This document shows positions 5,882-32,888 of a stretch of DNA of 36,698 bases, piece by piece (the first letter of the stretch is position 1; every line of letters starts with the position of its first letter). The stretch is taken from positions 1-36,698 of the forward strand of contig JACOZU010000003.1 in assembly GCA_016181165.1 (NCBI GenBank). Reading direction: 5' to 3'. A program made the position numbers and the translations under genes. The notes under the pieces were generated by a model. It worked only from the letters and a program-made list of their open reading frames with translations, searched no databases and was not told the origin of the DNA. This stretch comes from Candidatus Woesebacteria bacterium (GTDB lineage Bacteria; Patescibacteriota; Microgenomatia; UBA8517).

Positions 5882-8800
5882 AGGTTGCCAAGTTTGTCCA
5901 CCTGCATGTTCACACCGAATATTCGCTTCTCGACGGTCTTTCAAAAATAAGCAAGCTTTTCACGCACGTTAAGGAAAGCGGGATGGACTCTCTCGCAATT
6001 ACCGATCACGGGACAATGTATGGAGTCGTGGAATTTTACAAAAAAGCCCTTAAGGAAGGTATTAAGCCAATTATAGGCATGGAGGGCTATACCACCAATA
6101 TTAATCATCGGGAACGCCCCGAGAGAGGTAAATTCCAAAACTTTCACTTGCTTCTTCTGGCTAAAGACAAAGAGGGCTATCAAAATTTAATGAAGATAAC
6201 CTCCATTGCCCATCTGGAGGGCTATTATTACAGGCCTAGGGTAGACCGGGAAACACTAGCCAAATATTCAAAAGGGTTAATTTGCACTTCAGCCTGCGCG
6301 CAAGGAGAAGTTGCCCAAGCTCTAATTTCCGGTAATTTTGAAGAGGCCAAGAAAGCGGCGGAGTGGTTTCAGGACATTTTTGGCAAAGATTATTACTTGG
6401 AAGTCCAAAGACACGACTACGGGAAATTTATTGCTGATGTCGAAAATGCCCAGATTAGAAGCGAGCTTGCTAAAATGGCCGAGAATGAGAAAGCCATTTT
6501 TCTTGGGGTTAAAAAGCTAAGCCGGGAGCTGGGGATTCCCATCGTTGCCACCAACGATGCCCACTACGTCAAGGCCGAGGAGGCTACTGCCCAAGATTCT
6601 CTTGTTTGTATCGCCACCGCCAAAAACGTCAGCGACGTCACCCGCCTTCGTTTTATCGATTCTCCGACTTATTACCTTAAAACTCCCAAAGAAATGGCGG
6701 AGCTCTTTTCCGACCTTCCGGAAGCTTTAGAAAATAGCGTCAAAATTGCCGGAAAGTGCGACGTCTCCATCTCTTTAGATAAATGGTTTTTTCCGAAGTA
6801 CGAGCTTACAGAAGGCAAAACTCCGGAAGCTGAATTGACGCTAAGAGCCCGAGAGGGGCTAAAAGAAAAATTGGGAAAACCGACCAAGGAAGCGATTGAA
6901 AGACTCGACTATGAACTAGATACCATCAAGAAAAAGGGCTATTCGACCTACTTTTTAATAGTTTCCGACGTTGCGCGCTGGGCCGCGGAGAAAGGAATTA
7001 TAACCAATACCAGAGGCTCTACCGCAGGCTCCCTCGTCGCATTTGCTTTGGGCATCGTCAGTATTAACCCCTTAACCTACGAGCTTCCTTTTGAAAGATT
7101 TTTAACTCCATGGCGACCGTCCCCTCCCGATATCGACTTTGATATAGCTGATGATAGGCGCGAGGAAGTGATTAATTATATTGGAGAAAAATACGGGCAC
7201 GATAAAGTCGCTCAAATTTGTACATTCGGAAGGATGCTAGCAAGAGCAGCCGTTAGGGATATTGCCAGGGTTTTAGGCTATCCCTATTCAGCGGGTGATA
7301 GGATTGCGAAGCTAATTCCCTTGGGTTCTCAGGGCTTTCCCATGAGTATTGAAAAAGCGCTGGTGGTTTCCCCGGACCTTAAGAACCTTTATGACGGGGA
7401 CAACGACGCCAAAAAAATTATAGAGCTTGCCAAGCAAGTTGAAGGAAATGCCAGGCACATTTCTGTTCATGCCGCGGGGCTGGTTATAGCCCCCACCGAA
7501 ATTACCGATTTTACCCCTGTCCAGCTCGATCCGGAGGGTCAAAAAGTAATTACCCAATATGACATGGATGCACTCGACCCCAATGTTTCTCCTGGTGAAG
7601 CAATCGGGCTTCTCAAGTTTGATTTATTGGGCCTAAGGAACCTTTCGATTCTGGGGGCATCAATTGAGATTGTCAAAGAAACCAGGGGTGTGGATATAAA
7701 CCTGCGAACAATGCCAGTGGACGATAAAAAGACATTCGAGATGCTTTCTCGAGGAGACACAATGGGAGTTTTCCAGCTATCTGGCAGCGGCATGACCAGA
7801 TACTTAAAAGAACTTAAACCGACAAGAGTTGAGGATTTAATGGCGATGGTGGCTCTCTACCGTCCGGGACCGATGGCCCAGATTCCCGCCTACATTGAAA
7901 GAAAGAATAACCCCAAAAAAATCTCTTTTTTTGACCCAAGAATGAAGGACTACCTGGAAAAATCCTACGGACTGATGGTTTATCAGGACGACGTTTTTAC
8001 CACCGCGATAAATATAGCCGGCTACACCTGGGAAGAGGCAGATAAGTTTAGGAAAGCGGTCGCAAAGAAAATACCGGCCGAAATGGAAAAGCAGAAGCAG
8101 AAGTTTCTCGACGGAGCCCAAGGGAAAGGGATGAAAAAAGATAAAGCTGACGAACTCTTTAGACTAATCGAGCCTTTTTCTGGGTACGGCTTTAATAAAG
8201 CTCATGCGGCCTCTTACGGAATGGTTGCTTATCAAACCGCCTATATGAAAGCCCATTATCCAGTGGAATTTATGGCAGCCCTTCTAACCGCAGAATCCAA
8301 CGACGCCGAGAAAATTTCGGCTGCAGTTAATGGCTGTAGGAGAATCGGGGTTAAAGTTCTTCCTCCGGATATTAACGAAAGCGAAATAGGCTTTAAAATT
8401 GTACCCGACAAAGATTCTATGGATAGCCGTGCCATCAGGTTCGGCCTCTCGGCCATTAAAAATGTCGGTAATGCCGCCATAGAGGCAGTTCTTGAGGCCA
8501 GAAAAAACGGCAAGTTCACTTCATTTGCCGACTTTTTGGCTAGAGTTGACGCCAGGCGTGTCAATAAAAGGGTTTTGGAAAGCCTGATTAAAGTGGGCGC
8601 TCTTTCTTCATTCGGAGGAAGGGCAGCTCTTCTTTACTCGATAGACGAGATCAGAAATAGGGTGGCCAGACCAAAGGGTTCCGCCGGCCAACAGGACCTT
8701 TTCGGCGAAAGCGACATCGTTAAATCAAAGAAATCCGCCTCCGCCCTCATTAGGGCCGACGTCTCAGAGTTTTCGCAGGATGAACTTCAGACGCTGGAAA

Positions 8801-23208: not shown

Positions 23209-23237
23209 AAAATACAAACAAAACCCGAAGCTGTCAA
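23209..23237 (-). promoter_or_regulatory. Putative lexA promoter: TTGACA, 17-nt spacer, TATTTT, then 7 nt to ATG (leaderless geometry)
   Basis: The minus strand reads TTGACA gcttcgggttttgtttg TATTTT gaaatat ATG. There is no Shine-Dalgarno between the -10 and the ATG. Confidence 0.4.
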
Positions 23238-23260
23238 GACCCAAAATTAACCCAATGCTA

Positions 23261-23276: not shown

Positions 23277-25085
23277 ATGAAATTTAAAATTGAGTCCCGT
23301 TTTAGCGGGAAAACTTTTACAATGGCCAATGTGATTGAAAGGTTGCAAAGGCCGACTTTAATCATTTCCCACAATAAAACCCTGGCGGCCCAGCTTTATC
23401 AGGAACTTCGGGATTTCTTTCCGGATAATGCCGTCTCCTACTTTGTCTCCTACTATGACTTTTACCAGCCCGAAGCTTATATCCCTTCAACCGATACTTA
23501 TATCGAAAAAGACTCGGATATCAACGAACTGATCGATAAGCTTAGGCTGGCTGCAACCACCAACCTTTTAACGAGGAAGGATACAATAGTCGTTGCCTCT
23601 GTTTCCTGCATCTATAACATCGGCTCCCCTCGGGAATACGGCCACTTTGTTTTTGAATTTAGAGAAGGAATGAGAGCAGAGAGAAAGCAGATAATCGACA
23701 GACTCATCGATTTGCAATACGAGCGTGGCGACTTCGGCTTTCATCGAGGAACATTTAGGGTCAGGGGCGATGCCATCGACATCTACCCTTCATATCAGGA
23801 CGAGGGGGTTCGAATAGAACTGAGGAGAGAGACAATCAAGAAGGTCTCCCTGATCAATACCGTTACCGGGAAAACCACGATTGGTTGGTTAAAGAATTTT
23901 ATTCTCTACCCGGCCAAACACTTCATCACCGACCCGGCCAAGCATCAATCTAGCTTCGATGAAATTAGGACGGATTTGCAAAAACAGCTAGCCAAGTTTA
24001 AAAAAGAAGGCAAACTTTTGGAAGCTCAAAGACTGACCCAAAGAGTCAATTACGACCTAGAGATGATTCAAGAAGTTGGCTATGTTAAAGGAATTGAGAA
24101 CTATTCAAGGTATTTTGACGGCCGGGCTCCGGGGGATGCCCCTTATTCTCTTCTTGACTACTTCTCGGCCCCATATGCTCGCGACTGGCTGGTCATCGTT
24201 GATGAGAGCCACATGACTTTCCCTCAAGTTAGAGGGATGTATAACGGCGACTTAGTAAGAAAGAAAACCCTTGTTGATTATGGTTTTAGACTGCCGGCGG
24301 CCTTGGACAATCGACCTCTAAGGTTTGAGGAATTTATGAGAAGAATTCCCAATTTCATTGCCACCAGTGCCACACCGGCTGAGTGGGAAATATCCATGGC
24401 CAAGGGCAAGCTCACCCAGCAGCTTTTAAGACCAACCGGAATTCCGGACCCGGAAGTAGAAATACGCCCGACCAAAAATCAAGTAGCTGATGCCTATTTG
24501 CACTCCGACGTTAAAACTCTTGATCGGGGAGACATTTTGGACGACTTAAGGCTGGGAAAATACGATGTTTTGGTTGGAATCAATCTTCTTAGGGAGGGAC
24601 TCGACCTTCCCGAAGTTTCTCTTGTGGCTATTCTTGATGCGGACAAAGAAGGGTTTTTGCGTAGCGACGTAACACTCATTCAAACGATGGGTCGAGCCGC
24701 CAGACACGCCCAAGGACGGGTAATTATGTATGCCGACCGAATTACTGGAAGTATGAGGAAGGCCTTGAGCGAAGTCGAAAGGCGCAGGAAGTATCAGACA
24801 AAAATGAATAAAAAATACGGAATTACGCCAAAATCAATCGAAAAACCCATTCGCGAAAAGCTAATTGAAAAAGAGGAAGAAACGGCAGTCGAAAAATTGT
24901 TTGGAAAGAAAGAGTCGACCTTGATGAAAGTCCCGCACCTTGACCTGGACGGATTAACGCCGATGGACAAAAGAAGGCTTGTCTTAAGTCTCCGTCGAGA
25001 GATGCTTTTGGCCGCGCAGGACTTAAACTTCGAACTGGCAGCGGAGATAAGGGATAAGATAAAAGGAATTAGCTTTGTTAATTAA
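23277..25085 (+). CDS. uvrB: Excinuclease ABC subunit B carrying two in-frame internal deletions relative to canonical UvrB (possibly non-functional)
   Basis: 602 aa from ATG 23277. It is collinear with E. coli UvrB across SGKTFTMANVI, NKTLAAQLY, YFVSYYDFYQPEAY, DESH, GFRLPAALDNRPL, VGINLLREGLDLPEVSLVAILDADKEGFLRS and the C-terminal UVR domain. About 31 aa are missing between codons 9 and 10, and about 40 aa are missing after codon 406. Confidence 0.85.
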   Translation: MKFKIESRFSGKTFTMANVIERLQRPTLIISHNKTLAAQLYQELRDFFPDNAVSYFVSYYDFYQPEAYIPSTDTYIEKDSDINELIDKLRLAATTNLLTRKDTIVVASVSCIYNIGSPREYGHFVFEFREGMRAERKQIIDRLIDLQYERGDFGFHRGTFRVRGDAIDIYPSYQDEGVRIELRRETIKKVSLINTVTGKTTIGWLKNFILYPAKHFITDPAKHQSSFDEIRTDLQKQLAKFKKEGKLLEAQRLTQRVNYDLEMIQEVGYVKGIENYSRYFDGRAPGDAPYSLLDYFSAPYARDWLVIVDESHMTFPQVRGMYNGDLVRKKTLVDYGFRLPAALDNRPLRFEEFMRRIPNFIATSATPAEWEISMAKGKLTQQLLRPTGIPDPEVEIRPTKNQVADAYLHSDVKTLDRGDILDDLRLGKYDVLVGINLLREGLDLPEVSLVAILDADKEGFLRSDVTLIQTMGRAARHAQGRVIMYADRITGSMRKALSEVERRRKYQTKMNKKYGITPKSIEKPIREKLIEKEEETAVEKLFGKKESTLMKVPHLDLDGLTPMDKRRLVLSLRREMLLAAQDLNFELAAEIRDKIKGISFVN

Positions 25086-25092
25086 AAGTAGT

Positions 25093-25311
25093 ATGCTATT
25101 ATCAAAATATATGGAGGATTTGGAAGCTAAATTTATCAAGAAATATGCAAATTTGCCTTGGGGAGCCAGAGAAGAAATTATAGCTGTTATTGATGGCAAA
25201 AATTTTACCTGGAACTCTGCTAATATAGAGATAGATAGAGGGAAAGAAGGCCCCACCGAAATAGGTCAGAAAATACTAAAACAATTACAAGACCTGAGAA
25301 TTTTTGAATGA
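25093..25311 (+). CDS. Small hypothetical protein, cassette ORF1 (66-78 aa depending on start)
   Basis: The ORF is open from TTG 25075, with ATGs at 25093 and 25111. TGcTATTAT at 25094-25102 followed by 8 nt and ATG 25111 suggests a leaderless start at 25111. The stop overlaps the next start (ATGA 25308-25311). No family was recognised. Confidence 0.45.
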   Translation: MLLSKYMEDLEAKFIKKYANLPWGAREEIIAVIDGKNFTWNSANIEIDRGKEGPTEIGQKILKQLQDLRIFE

Positions 25312-25595
25312 CAAGCCAAAGAGAAAAAGACGTACTAAAAGACGAGAGATTGAGACTGCAAGTTCAGAAACTAGTAATAGCAAGGCTTTCTGCTATTCCG
25401 AAAGATTTACAGATATCCGTTGGCTCCAAACAATATACGGTAGAGGACCTCCAAAAATTCGTAAAAGAGGATAACGAAATAGGAAGACAGCTGATGGAGA
25501 GTCAACTAAAGTACCTTAGAGAAATGGCTTCTGGGAAAATTTATAAGATGTGGTCAAATGAGCAAGACAATACTTATAACCAGGCCAAATTATGA
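25308..25595 (+). CDS. Small hypothetical protein, cassette ORF2 (95 aa), apparent distant paralog of ORF1
   Basis: ATGA-coupled to ORF1. It shares the pattern I-x-V-x-x-K-x-[FY]-T ... EIG-[QR] ... L with ORF1 (IAVIDGKNFT...EIGQKILKQL versus ISVGSKQYT...EIGRQLMESQL). Confidence 0.5.
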   Translation: MTSQREKDVLKDERLRLQVQKLVIARLSAIPKDLQISVGSKQYTVEDLQKFVKEDNEIGRQLMESQLKYLREMASGKIYKMWSNEQDNTYNQAKL

Positions 25596-26205
25596 GGAGA
25601 AGTTAAATTTTTTGTTCTTTTGGTCACAAACCGTTGTTGACTTAGCCAGAAAAAAGAATTTTGTTGTTTTAGACCTTAGATCAGAAAAATCTAACAAGAA
25701 AGACTTTGATAGCTATATTAAAAAGAATAATCCTTCCTTTGTGTTTTTCAACGGCCACGGATCAGCTCGTTTAATTACTGGTCATAACGACGAACCTCTT
25801 GTCTGTGCAGATAAAGATGAAGACCTCCTGAAAGATAAAATTGTATATTCTAGAACTTGTGAAAGCGCCCTTGTTCTTGGTAACCAATGTGTAAAAAACG
25901 GCACTAAGACTTTTATTGGTTACATAAGCCCCTTCGTTTTTTTCTACTCTAAGTCTTCTGTCTTGCACCCTCTTGGGGATGACATATGCAGGCAGTTCCT
26001 AGAACCCACTAACTTAATAGCAATTAAACTGCTTAAGGGCCATACCTCTAGAGAGGCAAACGAATATTCAAAAATAGCAATGTTAAAGAACGTTTTTTCA
26101 ATGTTGTCAAGTGCGTCAACTTTAGGTGAAAAGACCGTCGCGTCGTTCTTGTGGGGAAATATTACGAGTCAGGTGTTAATTGGTAATCCTAATGCAATGA
26201 TATGA
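25558..26205 (+). CDS. Hypothetical 215-aa protein, cassette ORF3; putative clan-CD (caspase/legumain/gingipain-like) cysteine peptidase fold
   Basis: Alternating strand/helix pattern: TILITRP, FVVLDL, FVFFNGHGS (His67, 25756-25758) and KIVYSRTCES (Cys101, 25858-25860). Compare legumain ..TDHGS.. / ..EACESGS.. and gingipain ..TGHGSE... No signal peptide. It overlaps ORF2 by 38 nt. The confidence refers to the gene being real; confidence in the fold call is about 0.35. Confidence 0.55.
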   Translation: MSKTILITRPNYEEKLNFLFFWSQTVVDLARKKNFVVLDLRSEKSNKKDFDSYIKKNNPSFVFFNGHGSARLITGHNDEPLVCADKDEDLLKDKIVYSRTCESALVLGNQCVKNGTKTFIGYISPFVFFYSKSSVLHPLGDDICRQFLEPTNLIAIKLLKGHTSREANEYSKIAMLKNVFSMLSSASTLGEKTVASFLWGNITSQVLIGNPNAMI

Positions 26206-26232
26206 TTCTTCTCGTCGGATTTAACTAATCTT

Positions 26233-26241
26233 TGTTATAAT
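26233..26241 (+). promoter_or_regulatory. Putative uvrA extended -10 promoter (TGtTATAAT)
   Basis: TG at 26233-26234 and TATAAT at 26236-26241, followed by a 34-nt leader with a GATGGGG SD-like element 7 nt before ATG 26276. Confidence 0.35.
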
Positions 26242-26275
26242 CATCATACCGTCGGTAAGCCGATGGGGCGTTTGC

Positions 26276-29215
26276 ATGGAAAACACTATCAAAATTAGGG
26301 GGGCGAGACAGCATAACCTGAAAAATATCGACCTAACGATTCCTAAAAACAAACTGGTCGTGTTTACCGGAGTTTCCGGCAGTGGGAAAAGTTCCCTGGC
26401 CTTTGACACGATTTACGCCGAAGGACAAAGAAGATATGTCGAGAGTCTTTCCTCCTACGCCAGACAGTTTCTGGGTGTCATGGAAAAGCCGGATGTTGAC
26501 CACATCGAGGGCCTATCTCCCTCAATTTCGATTGACCAGAAAACCACTTCCCGAAACCCACGCTCAACGGTAGGAACGGTCACCGAGGTCTACGATTACT
26601 TAAGACTTCTTTTTGCCAGGGTCGGGCATCCCCATTGTCCCGTCTGCGGCCGGGAAATTTCTCATCAAACCCTTGACCAAATCGTTGCCAAATCTCTTGA
26701 GCTCATTAAAGAAGAAGCCAAGACAAAGAAAAAGGGTTGGTTCTTAGTCCTTTCTCCGGTTGTTTCCGGTCGGAAGGGAGAATATGCTTCTCTTTTTGAC
26801 AACCTTAAAGCCAAAGGATTTCGAAAGGTCCGGGTCGACGGCTATCTGAAGGATTTATCTGAAGATTTTGTTCTTATCAAGACAAATAAACACTCTATCG
26901 AAGTGGAGATTGATAGAATTTCGGTAGGCAGTAGCAATCTAAAGGATAAGCAAAGCTTGGCCGGCTCCGCCGGTAAAATCTTCGAGGAAAACTTGAAGTC
27001 CCGCTTGGCCGACTCGGTCAGGCAAGCTCTTAACCTCTCCGAAGGCAATGTCGTTTTGACCCAGGTGCTTGATTCGGGCTTTGAAATGCCGGACTTTCCC
27101 AGAAAGTTTTCCGACCACTTATTTTCCGAAAGATTTGCTTGTCCAATTGATAACGTCCAAATCCCTGAGATTGAACCTCGAACTTTTTCTTTTAACTCGC
27201 CTCACGGAGCCTGTCACGCCTGCAGCGGGCTGGGGAGGATTCTCAAGGCTGACCCTAATTTGGTTTTTTCCGATGAACTCTCGATTACCGAAGGGGGCGT
27301 TCTTCCTGTTGGCCACATGTTTGAACACGATACCTGGTATTCCCGACTGATTCTGACCGTTTGTGAAGAACTGGGAATTGATGCGAAAGCACCCTTAGGA
27401 ACCCTTAGCCCAAAAGAGAAAGAGATTCTTCTTTTTGGCACCGGAGACGAAGAATATCAAGTCGGAGGAACCAACCGCTTCGGCAGAAACACTTATATCT
27501 GGGAGCCTTTTTACGGCATCATTCACTTTTTGGAAAAGAGGCACTCTGAAACCGAATCCGATTACGTGCGCTGGGAGCTGGAAAAATACATGAGGCGAAG
27601 GCTCTGTCAAGAATGTCGGGGCAGCCGACTCAAAAAAGAGGCTTTGGCGATTACCATCGACGGACTCTCGATTTCAGCCGTGACCGCTTTTTCTATCAAT
27701 CAGGTGTGGGCATGGATTAGTAAACTGGCCAAGTTTTTGTCTGAGAGGGAAAAAGAAATCGGGCGACTGATTATTAAGGAAATTGCGGCTAGACTCGAAT
27801 TCCTCAAGTCCGTGGGGCTAACCTATTTGACTCTGGAAAGAGAAGCCGGGACGCTTTCGGGCGGAGAAGCCCAAAGGATTAGACTGGCTTCCCAAATCGG
27901 CTCCGGTTTAACCGGGGTTCTTTACGTACTGGATGAACCAACGATAGGACTCCACCAAAGAGATAACCAAAGACTGATTGACACTTTGGAAAAATTAAGA
28001 GATTTAGGCAACAGCGTCATTGTCGTTGAGCACGACCGGGAAATGATAGGCCAGTCCGACCATGTCATCGACTTTGGCCCCGGTGCAGGCAAATGGGGAG
28101 GCCAAATTGTGGCCGAGGGGACACCGGGCAAGATCGCCAAAAATTCAAAGTCGCTTACGGGAAAGTATCTGTCCGGAAAGAAAAAGGTGGAAGTGCCGGC
28201 TCTCCCATCGGTATCAAATCATCAATCACTCAAAATTTATGGCTGTCGACAGTTTAACTTGAAGGATATTGATGTCGAATTCCCTTTGGGGAAATTCATC
28301 GTCATTACCGGCGTCTCGGGGAGTGGAAAATCGACGCTTTTGGTTGAGACTCTCTATCCCAGCCTGGTGCAAAAAATGAACCCCTATTTTAGGGGGGAGG
28401 TCGGGACTTTCAAAAGGCTTGAGGGAGAACATCAAGTCGATAAAGTCATCTTAATCGACCAGTCGCCGATAGGCAGAACCCCAAGGAGCAATCCCGCCAC
28501 CTACACTAAAGTTTTTGACCCGATGAGGGACGTTTATGCGGCAACCCACGAAGCCAAAGCGGCCGGATTCAAGAAAGGTCATTTCTCTTTTAACGTCAGA
28601 GGGGGAAGGTGTGAGGCCTGCGAAGGACAGGGGCAGATTAAAATCGAGATGCAGTTTATGAGCGATATTTGGGTGACCTGCGACGTCTGCCGGGGTAAAC
28701 GATATCTTTCTCAAACGTTGGATATCAGCTATAAAGACAAAAATATTGCCGAAGTCCTTGAGATGACGGTTTCTGAGGCCATAGAATTTTTCCAGGCCCA
28801 CCCCTTGATATCAGCCAAACTCGAGACCCTTTCGGCGGTCGGCCTGGGGTATATCCATCTGGGCCAACCGGCCACGACACTCTCGGGTGGGGAAGCACAG
28901 CGGGTCAAGCTTGCCAGCGAACTATCCAAAAGAGCCACCGGCAAAACTTTTTACATCTTGGACGAACCAACCACCGGCCTTCATTTTGCCGATGTCGAAA
29001 ATCTTCTAAGAGTACTAAAAGTACTGGTAGCAAGAGGAAACACCGTTTGTGTCATCGAGCATAATCTCGATGTCGTCAAAAACGCCGACTGGATTATCGA
29101 TCTTGGCCCCGAAGGGGGAGAGATGGGAGGCGAGGTCATTGGCCAGGGAACACCCAAGGATCTAACCAGGAACAAAAATTCCTACACCGCTTACTACCTG
29201 AAACAAGTCAATTAA
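26276..29215 (+). CDS. uvrA: Excinuclease ABC subunit A
   Basis: 979 aa, full length and collinear with E. coli UvrA. It has two ABC ATPase modules (GVSGSGKSSLAFDT, GVSGSGKSTL, LSGGEAQR twice, YVLDEPTIGLH, YILDEPTTGLH) and zinc modules (CPVCG, CHACSGLG, CEACEGQG...CDVCRGKRY). Confidence 0.95.
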   Translation: MENTIKIRGARQHNLKNIDLTIPKNKLVVFTGVSGSGKSSLAFDTIYAEGQRRYVESLSSYARQFLGVMEKPDVDHIEGLSPSISIDQKTTSRNPRSTVGTVTEVYDYLRLLFARVGHPHCPVCGREISHQTLDQIVAKSLELIKEEAKTKKKGWFLVLSPVVSGRKGEYASLFDNLKAKGFRKVRVDGYLKDLSEDFVLIKTNKHSIEVEIDRISVGSSNLKDKQSLAGSAGKIFEENLKSRLADSVRQALNLSEGNVVLTQVLDSGFEMPDFPRKFSDHLFSERFACPIDNVQIPEIEPRTFSFNSPHGACHACSGLGRILKADPNLVFSDELSITEGGVLPVGHMFEHDTWYSRLILTVCEELGIDAKAPLGTLSPKEKEILLFGTGDEEYQVGGTNRFGRNTYIWEPFYGIIHFLEKRHSETESDYVRWELEKYMRRRLCQECRGSRLKKEALAITIDGLSISAVTAFSINQVWAWISKLAKFLSEREKEIGRLIIKEIAARLEFLKSVGLTYLTLEREAGTLSGGEAQRIRLASQIGSGLTGVLYVLDEPTIGLHQRDNQRLIDTLEKLRDLGNSVIVVEHDREMIGQSDHVIDFGPGAGKWGGQIVAEGTPGKIAKNSKSLTGKYLSGKKKVEVPALPSVSNHQSLKIYGCRQFNLKDIDVEFPLGKFIVITGVSGSGKSTLLVETLYPSLVQKMNPYFRGEVGTFKRLEGEHQVDKVILIDQSPIGRTPRSNPATYTKVFDPMRDVYAATHEAKAAGFKKGHFSFNVRGGRCEACEGQGQIKIEMQFMSDIWVTCDVCRGKRYLSQTLDISYKDKNIAEVLEMTVSEAIEFFQAHPLISAKLETLSAVGLGYIHLGQPATTLSGGEAQRVKLASELSKRATGKTFYILDEPTTGLHFADVENLLRVLKVLVARGNTVCVIEHNLDVVKNADWIIDLGPEGGEMGGEVIGQGTPKDLTRNKNSYTAYYLKQVN

Positions 29216-29235: not shown

Positions 29236-31155
29236 ATGCTCAAACGGAACGTTGTTATTCAGAAGGTTTTTCTTTTTTTTATCTTGTCGGTCCTTTTTCT
29301 AATCTTCCCCAAACATTCTTTGGGAACAGGAGAATTTGCCACCGATGTCACCGTCAACTATCAGGTCGAAGAAGAAGGAACGACGCAAGTTTCCCATACA
29401 ATCTCTCTGGAAAACCTTTTTTCCGACCTCTATGCGACTTCATATACTCTGGTTTTAGACAACATCGAGCCCAAAAAGATAGCGGTTTTTGAAGGCTCAA
29501 AGTCCTTACCCTTTCGATTATCTTCCGAGGGAACACAAAATTCCCTGACGATCGATTTTCCGGAGGCTCTGGTTGGCAAGGGCAAGAAAAGGATTTTTAC
29601 GGTTTTATTTGAGGAGACCGGCTTTGCGGCAAGAACGGGAGAGGTCTGGGAGATTTCCATTCCAAGGCTGTCTCCGGACGAGAATTTCAGAAGCTACAAT
29701 GTCAGCTTTTCGGTTCCCGCTACTTTCGGAACCGAAGCCTATCTTTCCCCGAAACCTAAAGAAGTTGGGGGCCAAGAAGGAAGAGTGATTTACTTTTTTG
29801 ACAAGGAAGATGTCGAAAGAACCGGAGTCACCGCCGGCTTCGGCGCTTTTCAAGTCTTTTCCTTTACTCTCAATTACCACTTGGAAAACCCACTCAGCAA
29901 GAGCGCCAAGGTCGATATTGCCCTTCCCCCCGATACCGCCTTGCAGCGTGTCTATTATCAGGTCGTCAACCCCAAACCGGAGAACATTTATGTCGACTCC
30001 GACGGCAACTGGCTGGCTACCTACTTGCTTAAAAGTCGGGAAAGAATAGACGTTGAGGTCAAAGGGGTCGTTCAGATCTTTGCCGGACCCCGACCTTTTC
30101 CCATGCCCACCCAAGAAACACTTCAAGACAACCTTAAGGCGACAAATTATTGGCAAAGCTCTGACCCTAAAATAAGAAGTCTGGCGGGTAGCCTTGGCAC
30201 TGCCGAAGCTATCTATAACTATGTCTGGCAGAATCTTGCCTACGATTACGAAAGAGTTAAGCCTAATGTAGAAAGGTTAGGGGCTCTCAAGGCCCTAGAA
30301 TCTCCGACAAGCGCCATCTGCATGGAATTTACCGACCTTTTTATCGCTCTGGCGCGTTCTGCCGGAATTTCGGCCAGAGAAATCAACGGCTATGCCTACA
30401 CCGAAAACCCGGAAATCCAGCCTTTGAGTTTGGTTGCTGATGTCCTTCACGCCTGGCCCGAATATTGGGACGCCACCGAAGCAGCCTGGATTCCCATCGA
30501 CCCAACCTGGGCGTCAACCACGGGGGGGGTTGATTTCTTTTCAAAACTCGACTTAAGGCACTTTACTTTCGTTATCCACGGGGTTGACCCCCAGAGGCCG
30601 TATCCGCCGGGGTCTTATAAACTTGGGCCCAATCCACAGAAGGACGTCTTCGTCAGTTTCGGCACTCTTCCCGAAGAGCGGGTCAGCCATCCCGAAATTA
30701 CGGTCGTCACCAAAAGGCCCATCCCTTTTGGTCCCACCAGGCTTGATATCACCATCAAAAATCCCGGCCCGGTTGCGCTCTATAACCTCACTCCTGCCGT
30801 TTCCTTTAACGCAGGTGCGGTCAAGGCGGAAACCATTGAGGTTCTCCCCCCAAATGCCCATTATGAAATCGAGTCGGCCGTTCCTTATAGTTTCCTGGGG
30901 AGAAATACCCCCGAAGTCGTCACGGTTCTTGTTGCCGATAGCCAGGTTCAGGTTCCGACCAACAAAAACCAAATAATTCTTGAAAGTGCGGTTGTCCTTC
31001 TTTTGGTCCTTCTCATTGCCGTTCTGGCGATTTTAATCAAATTCAAAAAGATTCAAATTTCCAAATTTAGCGCTAAAATACCAATGCTAATTGCCCGAGT
31101 AAAGAAAAATGACACAGATACCGACTCTCAAGCGCCTATCGTTAAGAAATCTTAA
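29236..31155 (+). CDS. Envelope-anchored transglutaminase-like cysteine protease-fold protein
   Basis: N-terminal signal/TM (FLFFILSVLFLIFP), a large beta-rich N-domain, the transglutaminase core triad context (SAICMEFTDLF, HAWPEYWD, WIPIDPTW), and a C-terminal TM (VVLLLVLLIAVLAILI) with a basic tail. Confidence 0.85.
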   Translation: MLKRNVVIQKVFLFFILSVLFLIFPKHSLGTGEFATDVTVNYQVEEEGTTQVSHTISLENLFSDLYATSYTLVLDNIEPKKIAVFEGSKSLPFRLSSEGTQNSLTIDFPEALVGKGKKRIFTVLFEETGFAARTGEVWEISIPRLSPDENFRSYNVSFSVPATFGTEAYLSPKPKEVGGQEGRVIYFFDKEDVERTGVTAGFGAFQVFSFTLNYHLENPLSKSAKVDIALPPDTALQRVYYQVVNPKPENIYVDSDGNWLATYLLKSRERIDVEVKGVVQIFAGPRPFPMPTQETLQDNLKATNYWQSSDPKIRSLAGSLGTAEAIYNYVWQNLAYDYERVKPNVERLGALKALESPTSAICMEFTDLFIALARSAGISAREINGYAYTENPEIQPLSLVADVLHAWPEYWDATEAAWIPIDPTWASTTGGVDFFSKLDLRHFTFVIHGVDPQRPYPPGSYKLGPNPQKDVFVSFGTLPEERVSHPEITVVTKRPIPFGPTRLDITIKNPGPVALYNLTPAVSFNAGAVKAETIEVLPPNAHYEIESAVPYSFLGRNTPEVVTVLVADSQVQVPTNKNQIILESAVVLLLVLLIAVLAILIKFKKIQISKFSAKIPMLIARVKKNDTDTDSQAPIVKKS

Positions 31156-32486: not shown

Positions 32487-32888
32487 ATGAAAACCCTGGT
32501 AAGACACTATGTGATTGATACCGTCGCTCTTTATTTGGCTTCAACCGTAACGAGCGGACTTATCTTCGCTGAGGGGGTTAAAACCCTTCTTTTGGCCGGG
32601 GTGGGGCTTTTGTCGGCTTCTTTGGTCGTTCGGCCATTAATCAATCTGCTCATTCTCCCCTTAAATTTAATTACCTTCGGTCTTTTCAAGTGGGTGTCGA
32701 GCGCCGTTGCCCTTTACTTGGTGACTTTGGTTGTACCCGGATTTAAAATTGGCAATTTTGTTTTCCTGGGACTCGCCTCCGGTTGGCTAGGCATCCCCAG
32801 CTTTTCTTTGGACGGAATTCTCGCCTACGTCGGCTTTTCTTTTCTCCTTTCCCTGATTACCTCTTTGATGCATTGGCTCGTTAAATGA
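32487..32888 (+). CDS. Four-TM membrane protein (DUF360 / phage holin superfamily IV-like)
   Basis: 133 aa. RPLINLLILPLNLITFGLFKWVSSAVALYLVTLVVPGFKI matches my memory of the DUF360 core. Confidence 0.55.
   Translation: MKTLVRHYVIDTVALYLASTVTSGLIFAEGVKTLLLAGVGLLSASLVVRPLINLLILPLNLITFGLFKWVSSAVALYLVTLVVPGFKIGNFVFLGLASGWLGIPSFSLDGILAYVGFSFLLSLITSLMHWLVK

Follow-up and report, generated by a model that had tools for sequence, protein, structure and literature searches.

Three small genes lie between uvrB and uvrA in a 36,698-nucleotide stretch of Candidatus Woesebacteria DNA (assembly GCA_016181165.1, contig JACOZU010000003.1, forward strand), and the last of them encodes a predicted caspase-fold protease that consists of a single domain. 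The whole of this stretch is referred to here as the window. uvrB stops at position 25085 and uvrA starts at 26276, and the three open reading frames (ORFs) in between are all encoded on the same (+) strand: ORF1 (25111..25311, 66 residues), ORF2 (25308..25595, 95 residues, a small acidic protein) and ORF3 (25558..26205, 215 residues). The three genes make up a self-contained operon with coupled translation, which is carried as accessory cargo in a hypervariable insertion slot. We are very confident of this identification as an operon that encodes a clan CD protease together with two co-conserved small proteins. With regard to function, the reading that we favour, at a probability of about 0.45, is that the trio is a toxin-antitoxin-like or abortive-infection-like module in which the protease is restrained by ORF1 and ORF2.

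An AlphaFold2 model of ORF3, computed from an alignment of its relatives, has a predicted local distance difference test (pLDDT) score of 97.5 and a predicted template modelling (pTM) score of 0.93. The model is an alpha/beta/alpha sandwich with a central six-stranded sheet. When it was compared with the PDB using Foldseek, the best 12 matches all belonged to clan CD (E ≤ 1e-3, probability 1.00). The fold matches include the SAVED-CHAT protease 8tl0 (E = 7e-7), gingipain RgpB and caspase-4/-11, and lower down separase and C11. For 8tl0, the TM-score is 0.53-0.57 over the query, at a sequence identity of 14-15%. The signature of clan CD consists of a His-Gly and an (Ala/Ser)-Cys, each situated after a hydrophobic strand. 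In ORF3, His67 (codon 25756-25758) comes right after the strand of residues 61-65 (VFFNGH67G), and Cys101 (codon 25858-25860) right after that of residues 95-99 (VYSRTC101); both strands are hydrophobic. In an alignment of 38 relatives, down to 34% identity, the invariant residues are L6, T8, R9, P10, D39, N65, G66, H67, G68, Y97, C101, G121, Y122, D141 and G209. The invariance of His67 and Cys101 argues that catalysis is retained. ORF3 is thus predicted, from the model and the alignment, to be a 215-residue, single-domain cysteine protease of clan CD (caspase/CHAT/gingipain fold) with a conserved His67-Cys101 dyad. The initial annotation of this DNA, made from the sequence alone, had described ORF3 as a putative His/Cys protease-fold effector to be checked with AlphaFold and Foldseek, and the confident model, the clan CD matches and the invariant dyad bear out the protease fold.

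ORF3 of the window has no match in Pfam at E ≤ 1, including the models for CHAT (PF12770), Peptidase_C25 (PF01364) and Peptidase_C14. A Pfam scan of the 38 relatives gave Peptidase_C25 in one of 38 (2.4e-4), CHAT in one of 38 (E = 0.038) and C14 in none. A profile search against the sequences in the PDB returned noise only, which across the three protein families consisted of an aminotransferase, sigma-E region 4 (E about 0.3-0.9) and a designed protein. The initial homology search yielded 41 proteins, nearly all of 212-221 residues, and the few named ones are hypothetical proteins of Patescibacteria or Woesebacteria. An exhaustive profile search raised this to 2,600 cluster representatives (50% identity) at E ≤ 1e-3, with 402 at E ≤ 1e-30. 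The best 150 representatives are nearly all about 200-220 residues long, and the shorter ones look truncated. The family has a median isoelectric point (pI) of 9.4 and a net charge of about +9. ORF3 is a single domain without a signal peptide, prodomain or sensor domain. The ORF3 family, which reaches no model of Pfam, NCBIfam, PADLOC or PHROGs, is thus a large, uniform and unannotated set of bare caspase-fold domains.

The best structural match to ORF3 is found among the CHAT proteases, represented by SAVED-CHAT (8tl0) and by TPR-CHAT/Csx29 of Craspase. They share the caspase-hemoglobinase fold, with the His after strand 3 and the Cys after strand 4. CHAT proteases act in prokaryotic conflict systems, where they cleave small partner proteins. 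They carry SAVED or TPR sensors, whereas ORF3 is a bare protein of 215 residues with no CRISPR or cyclic-nucleotide genes nearby. ORF3 also shares its fold, and the order of its two catalytic residues, with gingipain R (C25), the caspases and metacaspases (C14), separase (C50) and clostripain-like C11. The His-Cys spacing of 34 residues in ORF3 resembles that of gingipain. Unlike gingipain and the caspases, ORF3 has no prodomain, signal peptide or p20/p10 linker, and it is far smaller than gingipain (about 430 residues) or separase.

The coordinates of the block and of its three ORFs, which the initial annotation could place in no named family, proved exact, and searches of Pfam, PADLOC, NCBIfam and PHROGs with the three proteins gave no match below E = 0.05. 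For ORF1, an alternative ATG at 25093 would give a protein of 72 residues. The start at 25111 corresponds to that of its relatives (MEDLEAKF vs MENLKIKF), and the length of ORF1 is therefore taken as 66 residues. ORF1 and ORF2 overlap by ATGA, and ORF2 and ORF3 overlap by 38 nt. The proposal of a coupled operon, which had been made on the basis of these overlaps, is strengthened by 10 loci in which the junctions span only -38 to +14 nt. The low G+C content noticed earlier was also confirmed. The block 25086-26232 has a G+C content of 0.365, compared with a window mean of 0.457 (standard deviation 0.027) at that stretch length, and no other stretch of the window has a lower value; outside the block, G+C does not drop below 0.399. 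No Rfam element was found within the block.

The cassette may be transcribed from a promoter of its own. An extended -10-like box, TGcTATTAT, is situated at 25094..25102 (+) and forms part of a candidate promoter TTGTTA-16-TATTAT with a TG. This is a consensus match only. The box ends 8 nt before the ORF1 ATG at 25111, so that the ORF1 mRNA may be leaderless, and similar boxes occur 6-8 nt ahead of the ORF1 ATG in two other loci (L001 and L011). The box had been pointed out in the initial annotation and is present as described, but the region contains about as many promoter-like sites as expected by chance (6, against 5.9 in shuffled sequences). A second extended -10-like box, TGTTATAAT, can be read directly at 26233..26241 (+), at the right edge of the slot and outside the cassette. 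This is a perfect extended -10, located 35-43 nt upstream of the uvrA ATG, and the equivalent place in L001 has TGTATAAT. On account of these boxes, uvrA probably has its own promoter, and its co-transcription with uvrB would not be obligatory.

ORF1 and ORF2 are both small and acidic, with median family pI values of 5.2 and 5.4, respectively. In the ORF1 family alignment (n = 18), F8, N14, L15, P16, W34, L56 and L59 are invariant; in that of ORF2 (n = 77), R26, G39, G59 and G76 are. ORF2 has an acidic loop in which the near-invariant D56 is followed by the invariant G59 before the last helix, and a similar T/D-x-x-G is found in ORF1. The AlphaFold2 model of ORF2 (pLDDT 83.8) consists of a helix (13-28), a hairpin (35-44), two further helices (45-53 and 57-75) and a disordered C-terminal tail. 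A fold check had been suggested for each protein; for ORF2 it gave this model but no significant structural neighbor, with Foldseek finding no significant match in the PDB or BFVD. The top seven PDB matches (E 0.29-2.5) are all prefoldin subunits, the best being prefoldin beta (E = 0.29), and this prefoldin-like topology is a hint only. Neither protein has a match in Pfam, PADLOC, NCBIfam, PHROGs or the PDB sequences, and Pfam scans of family members gave nothing consistent. The similarity of ORF2 to sigma-E region 4 in the profile search against PDB sequences is insignificant (E 0.3-0.9), and its predicted fold has no helix-turn-helix.

In the initial annotation, ORF1 and ORF2 were described as paralogs. 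This is not upheld by the comparisons made here. A BLASTP comparison gave no match. hhalign produced a collinear alignment of 61 columns with P = 0.019 and a probability of 2.4%, and P stayed near 0.02 with both small and large alignments. The hidden Markov model (HMM) cross-scores are at most 11.7 bits, close to the 10.9 bits of one shuffle control run in one direction. MAFFT persistently places ORF1-like sequences onto ORF2, which is suggestive and is no test of paralogy. Paralogy of ORF1 and ORF2 is thus at best weakly indicated by their sequences.

The three genes are found together elsewhere. An HMM scan of loci showed the order ORF1-ORF2-ORF3 wherever the contig suffices, with ORF1 upstream of ORF2 each time. 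The trio occurs in at least 11 distinct genomic contexts on contigs of Patescibacteria (Woese-, Shapiro- and Beckwithbacteria, among others) and of archaea. The question whether the trio travels as a unit, raised in the initial annotation, can thus be answered in the affirmative. A scan of wider sequence collections with a narrower ORF3 alignment recovered 3 genome loci only and no viral contig. Outside this genome, the trio is found only in uncultured ultra-small bacteria and archaea. Comparison with the copy in another Woesebacteria lineage (L001) gave ratios of nonsynonymous to synonymous divergence (dN/dS) of 0.06 for ORF1, 0.23 for ORF2 and 0.10 for the first 59 codons of ORF3, with dS saturated; for the remainder of ORF3, dN is 0.185 and dS is again saturated. 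As judged from these values, all three genes are under purifying selection, and the conservation together with dN/dS led us to reject the possibility that the ORFs are spurious. There is thus a clear coding signal and co-conservation outside this genome, and no match to a housekeeping family.

The contexts are diverse. Besides the window, one Woesebacteria lineage (L001-3) has the trio between uvrB and uvrA. Elsewhere the trio lies near Nramp and a serine recombinase (L004/5/12), glycosyltransferases (L006/7), AAA_14-DUF4143 and MazE (L008), DUF3800, MazE and pilins (L009), Bro-N and AAA_14 (L010), a DNA methylase, DUF4917 and a weak GIY-YIG match (L011), a peptidase-like gene upstream (L013, Shapirobacteria) and a type I restriction-modification system (L016). 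At L098 (5106-6183), it stands beside an S13-S4-S11-RpoD-L18e-L13-S9-RpoN operon, and this ribosomal-protein/RpoD/RpoN operon identifies the contig as archaeal. On a further archaeal contig, that of P0106, the neighbors are S_layer_C and HVO_A0114. The presence of the trio on these two archaeal contigs implies, on the evidence of their gene content, an exchange between bacteria and archaea. Neighbors are often toxin-antitoxin, restriction-modification or mobile genes, and DNA methylase, Bro-N and Polbeta/NTP_transf_2 genes also occur. In five hosts with a G+C content of at least 0.41 (the window, L001, L004, L006 and L011), the trio lies 6-9 points below its host, and a drop of this size is seen in every host with a G+C content of 0.45 or more. 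The difference is 4.4 points in L013 (host 0.41) and 1.9 points in L009, and in low-G+C genomes the values are equal.

The gap between uvrB and uvrA is itself variable. Whether the two genes are normally contiguous had been raised in the initial annotation, and we scanned metagenomes with the UvrA N terminus and checked the resulting 80 loci for the trio by tblastn and HMM. ORF1, ORF2 and ORF3 were found in none of these 80 other uvrA loci by either method. In distant relatives with uvrB upstream, the gap is mostly 18-160 nt. In the closest relatives, whose UvrA N termini are 67-98% identical, it ranges from about 80 to 1,790 nt, and most gaps are well above 300 nt. The larger gaps (L017-L025, L032 and L033; about 340-1,790 nt) contain unrelated orphan ORFs that are encoded on one strand or the other and are mostly lower in G+C, among them a type IV secretion system pilin-like membrane protein and a sigma-70 region 4 protein. 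The relative at L017 has 84.5% DNA identity to the window and a UvrA N terminus that is 98% identical, and it carries a different ORF of 134 residues in the slot. DNA homology with L017 and L020 stops at about 25064-25085 and restarts exactly at 26233, at the TGTTATAAT box. Because homology restarts there, the slot (25086..26232, unstranded, holding the three-gene cassette in the window) is taken to be the spacer that separates the uvrB stop codon from the promoter of uvrA, where insertions are harmless. In this lineage the uvrB-uvrA gap is a hotspot for cargo. No att-like direct or inverted repeats were found at the slot borders.

The block had been regarded as horizontally acquired because of its composition. 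It is accessory DNA in a variable slot, but a recent acquisition is too simple an account. The Woesebacteria copy (L001) has identities to the window of 78% for ORF1, 58% for ORF2 and 75-78% for ORF3, and the flanking genes have 68% (UvrB), 70% (UvrA) and 54% (the transglutaminase-like protein). A recent one-off horizontal transfer is rejected because the copy is as diverged as its flanks. For the same reason, the trio may be old at the uvrB-uvrA site and may have been replaced in other strains.

Several loci carry broken, orphan or recombined versions of the trio. In L001-L003, ORF3 contains a +1 frameshift at about 5985-6005, in an A7 run (TATATAAAAAAAGAAC) just ahead of the catalytic FFNGHG, and ORF1 and ORF2 are intact. 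Three different assemblies list the identical frameshifted product of 154 residues. Conservation persists on both sides of the frameshift (dN 0.16-0.19), so that the gene could have been inactivated recently, could undergo phase variation or could be expressed by means of slippage. The ORF3 homolog in L014 (Beckwithbacteria) has an in-frame TAA at 287-289, between the catalytic His and Cys regions, and is probably a pseudogene. P0045 is a natural ORF1-ORF2 fusion of 138 residues (L015, 4282-4698) with no protease gene adjacent. It is encoded on an archaeal contig (TBP, Ribosomal_60s, CDC48), and Bro-N and YopA_C genes lie upstream of it. Because the two are fused in P0045, ORF1 and ORF2 may be argued to act together. 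Finally, at L097 (4706-6738), a SLFN_AlbA_2-HATPase_c_4-wHTH protein of 458 residues takes the place of ORF3 behind homologs of ORF1 and ORF2, and the block lies between two paralogous copies of the N-terminal part of a host gene (160 nt, 81% identical). This arrangement suggests that the ORF1-ORF2 pair may combine with alternative partners. Taken together, these four cases (L001-3, L014, L015 and L097) indicate that decay or exchange affects the large gene and that the small pair can persist alone.

In the toxin-antitoxin-like or abortive-infection-like module that we favour, the basic protease ORF3 would be the effector. Coupled translation would supply ORF1 and ORF2 in fixed proportion, and a heterodimer of the two would bind the protease and hold it inactive. 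If the small proteins were lost, degraded or displaced, for example by the product of a phage or mobile element, the freed protease would cleave cellular targets. Expression would probably proceed from a promoter just upstream of ORF1, and the uvr/LexA surroundings would be incidental. This reading is drawn from the gene order and overlaps and from the tight co-conservation of the trio, and from the placement of acidic small proteins (pI 5.2 and 5.4) upstream of a basic enzyme (9.4). The protease fold with its dyad, the purifying selection, the ORF1-ORF2 fusion and the accessory nature of the slot count in its favour as well. It is also drawn from the neighboring MazE, AAA_14-DUF4143, type I restriction-modification and mobile genes, from the decay of the large gene in L001-3 and L014, with the small genes kept in L001-3, and from the occurrence of ORF1-ORF2 without the protease (P0045 on L015, and L097), in the manner of orphan antitoxins. 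Type II toxin-antitoxin systems, including the toxin-antitoxin-chaperone type, are likewise built of small acidic upstream genes that overlap a basic downstream enzyme gene. They too are patchy in distribution and mobile, are found beside toxin-antitoxin or restriction-modification genes, and show decay of the large gene and small orphans. The trio differs from them in having no DNA-binding antitoxin fold, no known toxin family and two non-identical small partners.

A number of observations speak against this interpretation. ORF1 and ORF2 are both acidic with no DNA-binding fold detected, unlike typical type II antitoxins, and a search of Pfam and the PDB for DNA-binding antitoxin domains (RHH, HTH, AbrB, Phd/YefM) found none in either. 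To our knowledge, no protease toxin has been established for a classical toxin-antitoxin system, and two partner genes instead of one are unusual for such systems. No model of PADLOC-DB v2 matches any of the three proteins at E ≤ 1. A tblastn search against plasmid and phage records found no copy, and none was found on viral contigs. The enrichment of defense genes near the trio is an impression from about 13 contexts, to which no statistic is attached. Sequencing errors or recent events could account for both disruptions of ORF3, and the frameshift could be overcome by slippage on the A7 run.

A more specific form of the same interpretation is doubtful in our view. It would make the trio a widespread, as yet undescribed three-component system of ultra-small symbionts (Patescibacteria and archaea), in which a caspase-fold protease of 215 residues, among the smallest known and without sensor or prodomain, is gated by a heterodimer of anciently duplicated small proteins and serves as a protease-toxin immunity or addiction module. 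In that case the trio would represent a new class of toxin-antitoxin or abortive-infection systems and offer a minimal model of the way in which caspase-like enzymes are kept inactive.

The main rival is a proteolytic relay, in which ORF1, ORF2 or both are substrates of ORF3 and a triggered cleavage frees an active fragment. Relays of this kind are known: TPR-CHAT cleaves Csx30, CalpL cleaves CalpT and thereby frees CalpS, and proteases activate bacterial gasdermins. The closest solved folds to ORF3 are CHAT proteases of signaling systems, and a protease with two small co-translated proteins has the gene count of CalpL-CalpT-CalpS. Craspase-Csx30-Csx31/RpoE is a further case of a protease with two small co-encoded proteins, and in these systems the cleavage of the partner produces the effect. 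The disordered tail of ORF2 and its acidic D56/G59 loop, with the similar motif in ORF1, would suit a substrate. The invariant Arg9 of ORF3 lies just after strand 1, a position that presumably resembles that of the caspase Arg which binds the P1 Asp. However, the CalpL and Craspase proteases have sensor domains, CRISPR loci and sigma/anti-sigma partners, which ORF3 and ORF2 lack. ORF3 has no SAVED, TPR or NACHT domain, and its length of 215 residues is kept throughout the family. CRISPR, CBASS and nucleotide-signaling genes occur in none of the contexts, and no cas or cyclase Pfam match is recorded among the neighbors in 13 of them. No sigma, anti-sigma, pore-forming or other effector fold was recognised in ORF1 or ORF2, and the neighbors of ORF3 (66 and 95 residues) have no gasdermin or other Pfam match. 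The decay of ORF3 with ORF1 and ORF2 kept also fits a relay less easily if the small proteins serve no purpose alone. We therefore regard a relay as rather unlikely.

Staphopain and staphostatin offer a general parallel to a restrained protease, being a cysteine protease co-transcribed with a small, dedicated cytoplasmic inhibitor that would shield the cytoplasm of the producer. Staphopains are secreted and have the papain fold (clan CA), and the staphostatins are beta-barrels encoded downstream, whereas the trio has a cytoplasmic clan CD protease with alpha/beta small proteins encoded upstream.

It is less probable still that the trio is a housekeeping module, with ORF3 as a processing or quality-control protease and ORF1 and ORF2 as adaptors or chaperones, a mini-prefoldin-like helix-hairpin-helix pair that delivers substrates or aids the folding of ORF3. 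The prefoldin subunits among the ORF2 matches, although not significant, point in this direction, as do the size and uniform length of the ORF3 family, the strong purifying selection and the ordinary surroundings of some copies, such as the glycosyltransferase cluster of L006 and the edge of the ribosomal-protein operon of L098. A housekeeping role is difficult to reconcile with the patchy and strain-variable distribution, which leaves the trio absent from the relative with a 98% identical UvrA N terminus, or with the lowered G+C content of the trio in the five hosts and in L013. Its location in a hypervariable slot, the toxin-antitoxin, restriction-modification and mobile genes nearby, and the occasional disruption of ORF3 are also at odds with it.

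The initial annotation linked the trio functionally to the SOS response and nucleotide excision repair. On this account, it would be an effector that is triggered by DNA damage as part of the LexA/uvr regulon, with transcription reading through into it from a LexA-controlled promoter of uvrB. The genes lexA and uvrB are divergent, and ORF1 begins only 7-25 nt after the uvrB stop, with no terminator-like site in between. Read-through from uvrB into the cassette is therefore possible as far as the sequence goes. The lexA-uvrB spacer contains a motif, ACCCGAA-n2-TGTCAAG (23223-23238), that is kept in eight relatives and whose first half, ACCCGAA, may belong to the LexA operator in this lineage. 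Read on the opposite strand, TGTCAAG gives CTTGACA, a -35-like element for lexA. The same uvrB-uvrA arrangement recurs in one Woesebacteria lineage, and repair-type genes occur near other copies, with HhH-GPD in L008, the weak GIY-YIG match in L011 and DNA_alkylation in L015. However, linkage to the uvr genes is confined to these two lineages, and about ten distinct contexts have no uvr or lexA gene. The trio is absent from all 80 other uvrA loci, and the slot of close relatives holds unrelated cargo on either strand. The spacer motif is absent upstream of ORF1 (25020-25110), with the limit that the true LexA box of the lineage may differ. Repair-type neighbors, at about 4 of 12 contexts, are, by a rough estimate, at about the level of chance for a neighborhood of 10 genes. 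The repair neighborhood of the trio is probably incidental, and we consider a damage-triggered function very improbable.

Finally, ORF3 could be an inert or non-proteolytic caspase-fold protein, either a scaffold or a transpeptidase like legumain or GPI8, within a small structural or modification complex, since clan CD includes transpeptidases and pseudo-proteases and no Pfam protease model matches at threshold. The invariance of His67, Cys101, Gly66, Gly68 and the hydrophobic strands in the 38 sequences speaks for retained catalysis, with which a transpeptidase would also be compatible, and we consider this reading as a whole highly unlikely.

The genes around the slot have Pfam matches to UvrB and UvrA, and those farther out to LexA, a transglutaminase-like protein and UvrC. 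Compared with its relatives, uvrB of the window (23277-25085) has two in-frame deletions. The first removes 31 residues in the N-terminal part, including the start of the Walker A segment (...LLGVTG|SGKT), and the second removes 39 residues of the C-terminal helicase domain after ...KNQVAD. This uvrB may be non-functional, or the assembly may have collapsed there. Between uvrA and uvrC, positions 29236-31155 encode a transglutaminase-core protein of 639 residues with an N-terminal signal-like or transmembrane-like segment, and its synteny is kept in relatives (54% identity in L001). Just downstream of uvrC, a protein of 133 residues (32487-32888) matches Phage_holin_4_2 (E = 1.9e-13).

The protease fold and protease-centered conflict modules are known as such. 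The four libraries searched contain neither the ORF3 family nor its partners nor this arrangement of three genes, and the statement of the initial annotation that the trio matches no named system holds for all of them: none of the proteins has a PADLOC match at E ≤ 1, or a match in Pfam, NCBIfam or PHROGs at E < 0.05. No description of such a trio was found in the literature. On the favoured reading, Patescibacteria and archaeal contigs would share a candidate conflict system. Defense in these lineages is known mainly through models built on cultured bacteria, and none of those models detects the trio. With about 2,600 unannotated clusters in the ORF3 family, the characterization of a single member would annotate a sizeable block of metagenomic proteins, and the uvrB-uvrA hotspot could be mined for further accessory genes. 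If the favoured reading is true, a caspase-fold protease would join the short list of effector types in toxin-antitoxin-like or abortive-infection-like modules. The control of a minimal, sensor-less enzyme of 215 residues by two tiny partners could then be studied structurally, which would help to explain the restraint of clan CD proteases and the origins of eukaryotic caspases.

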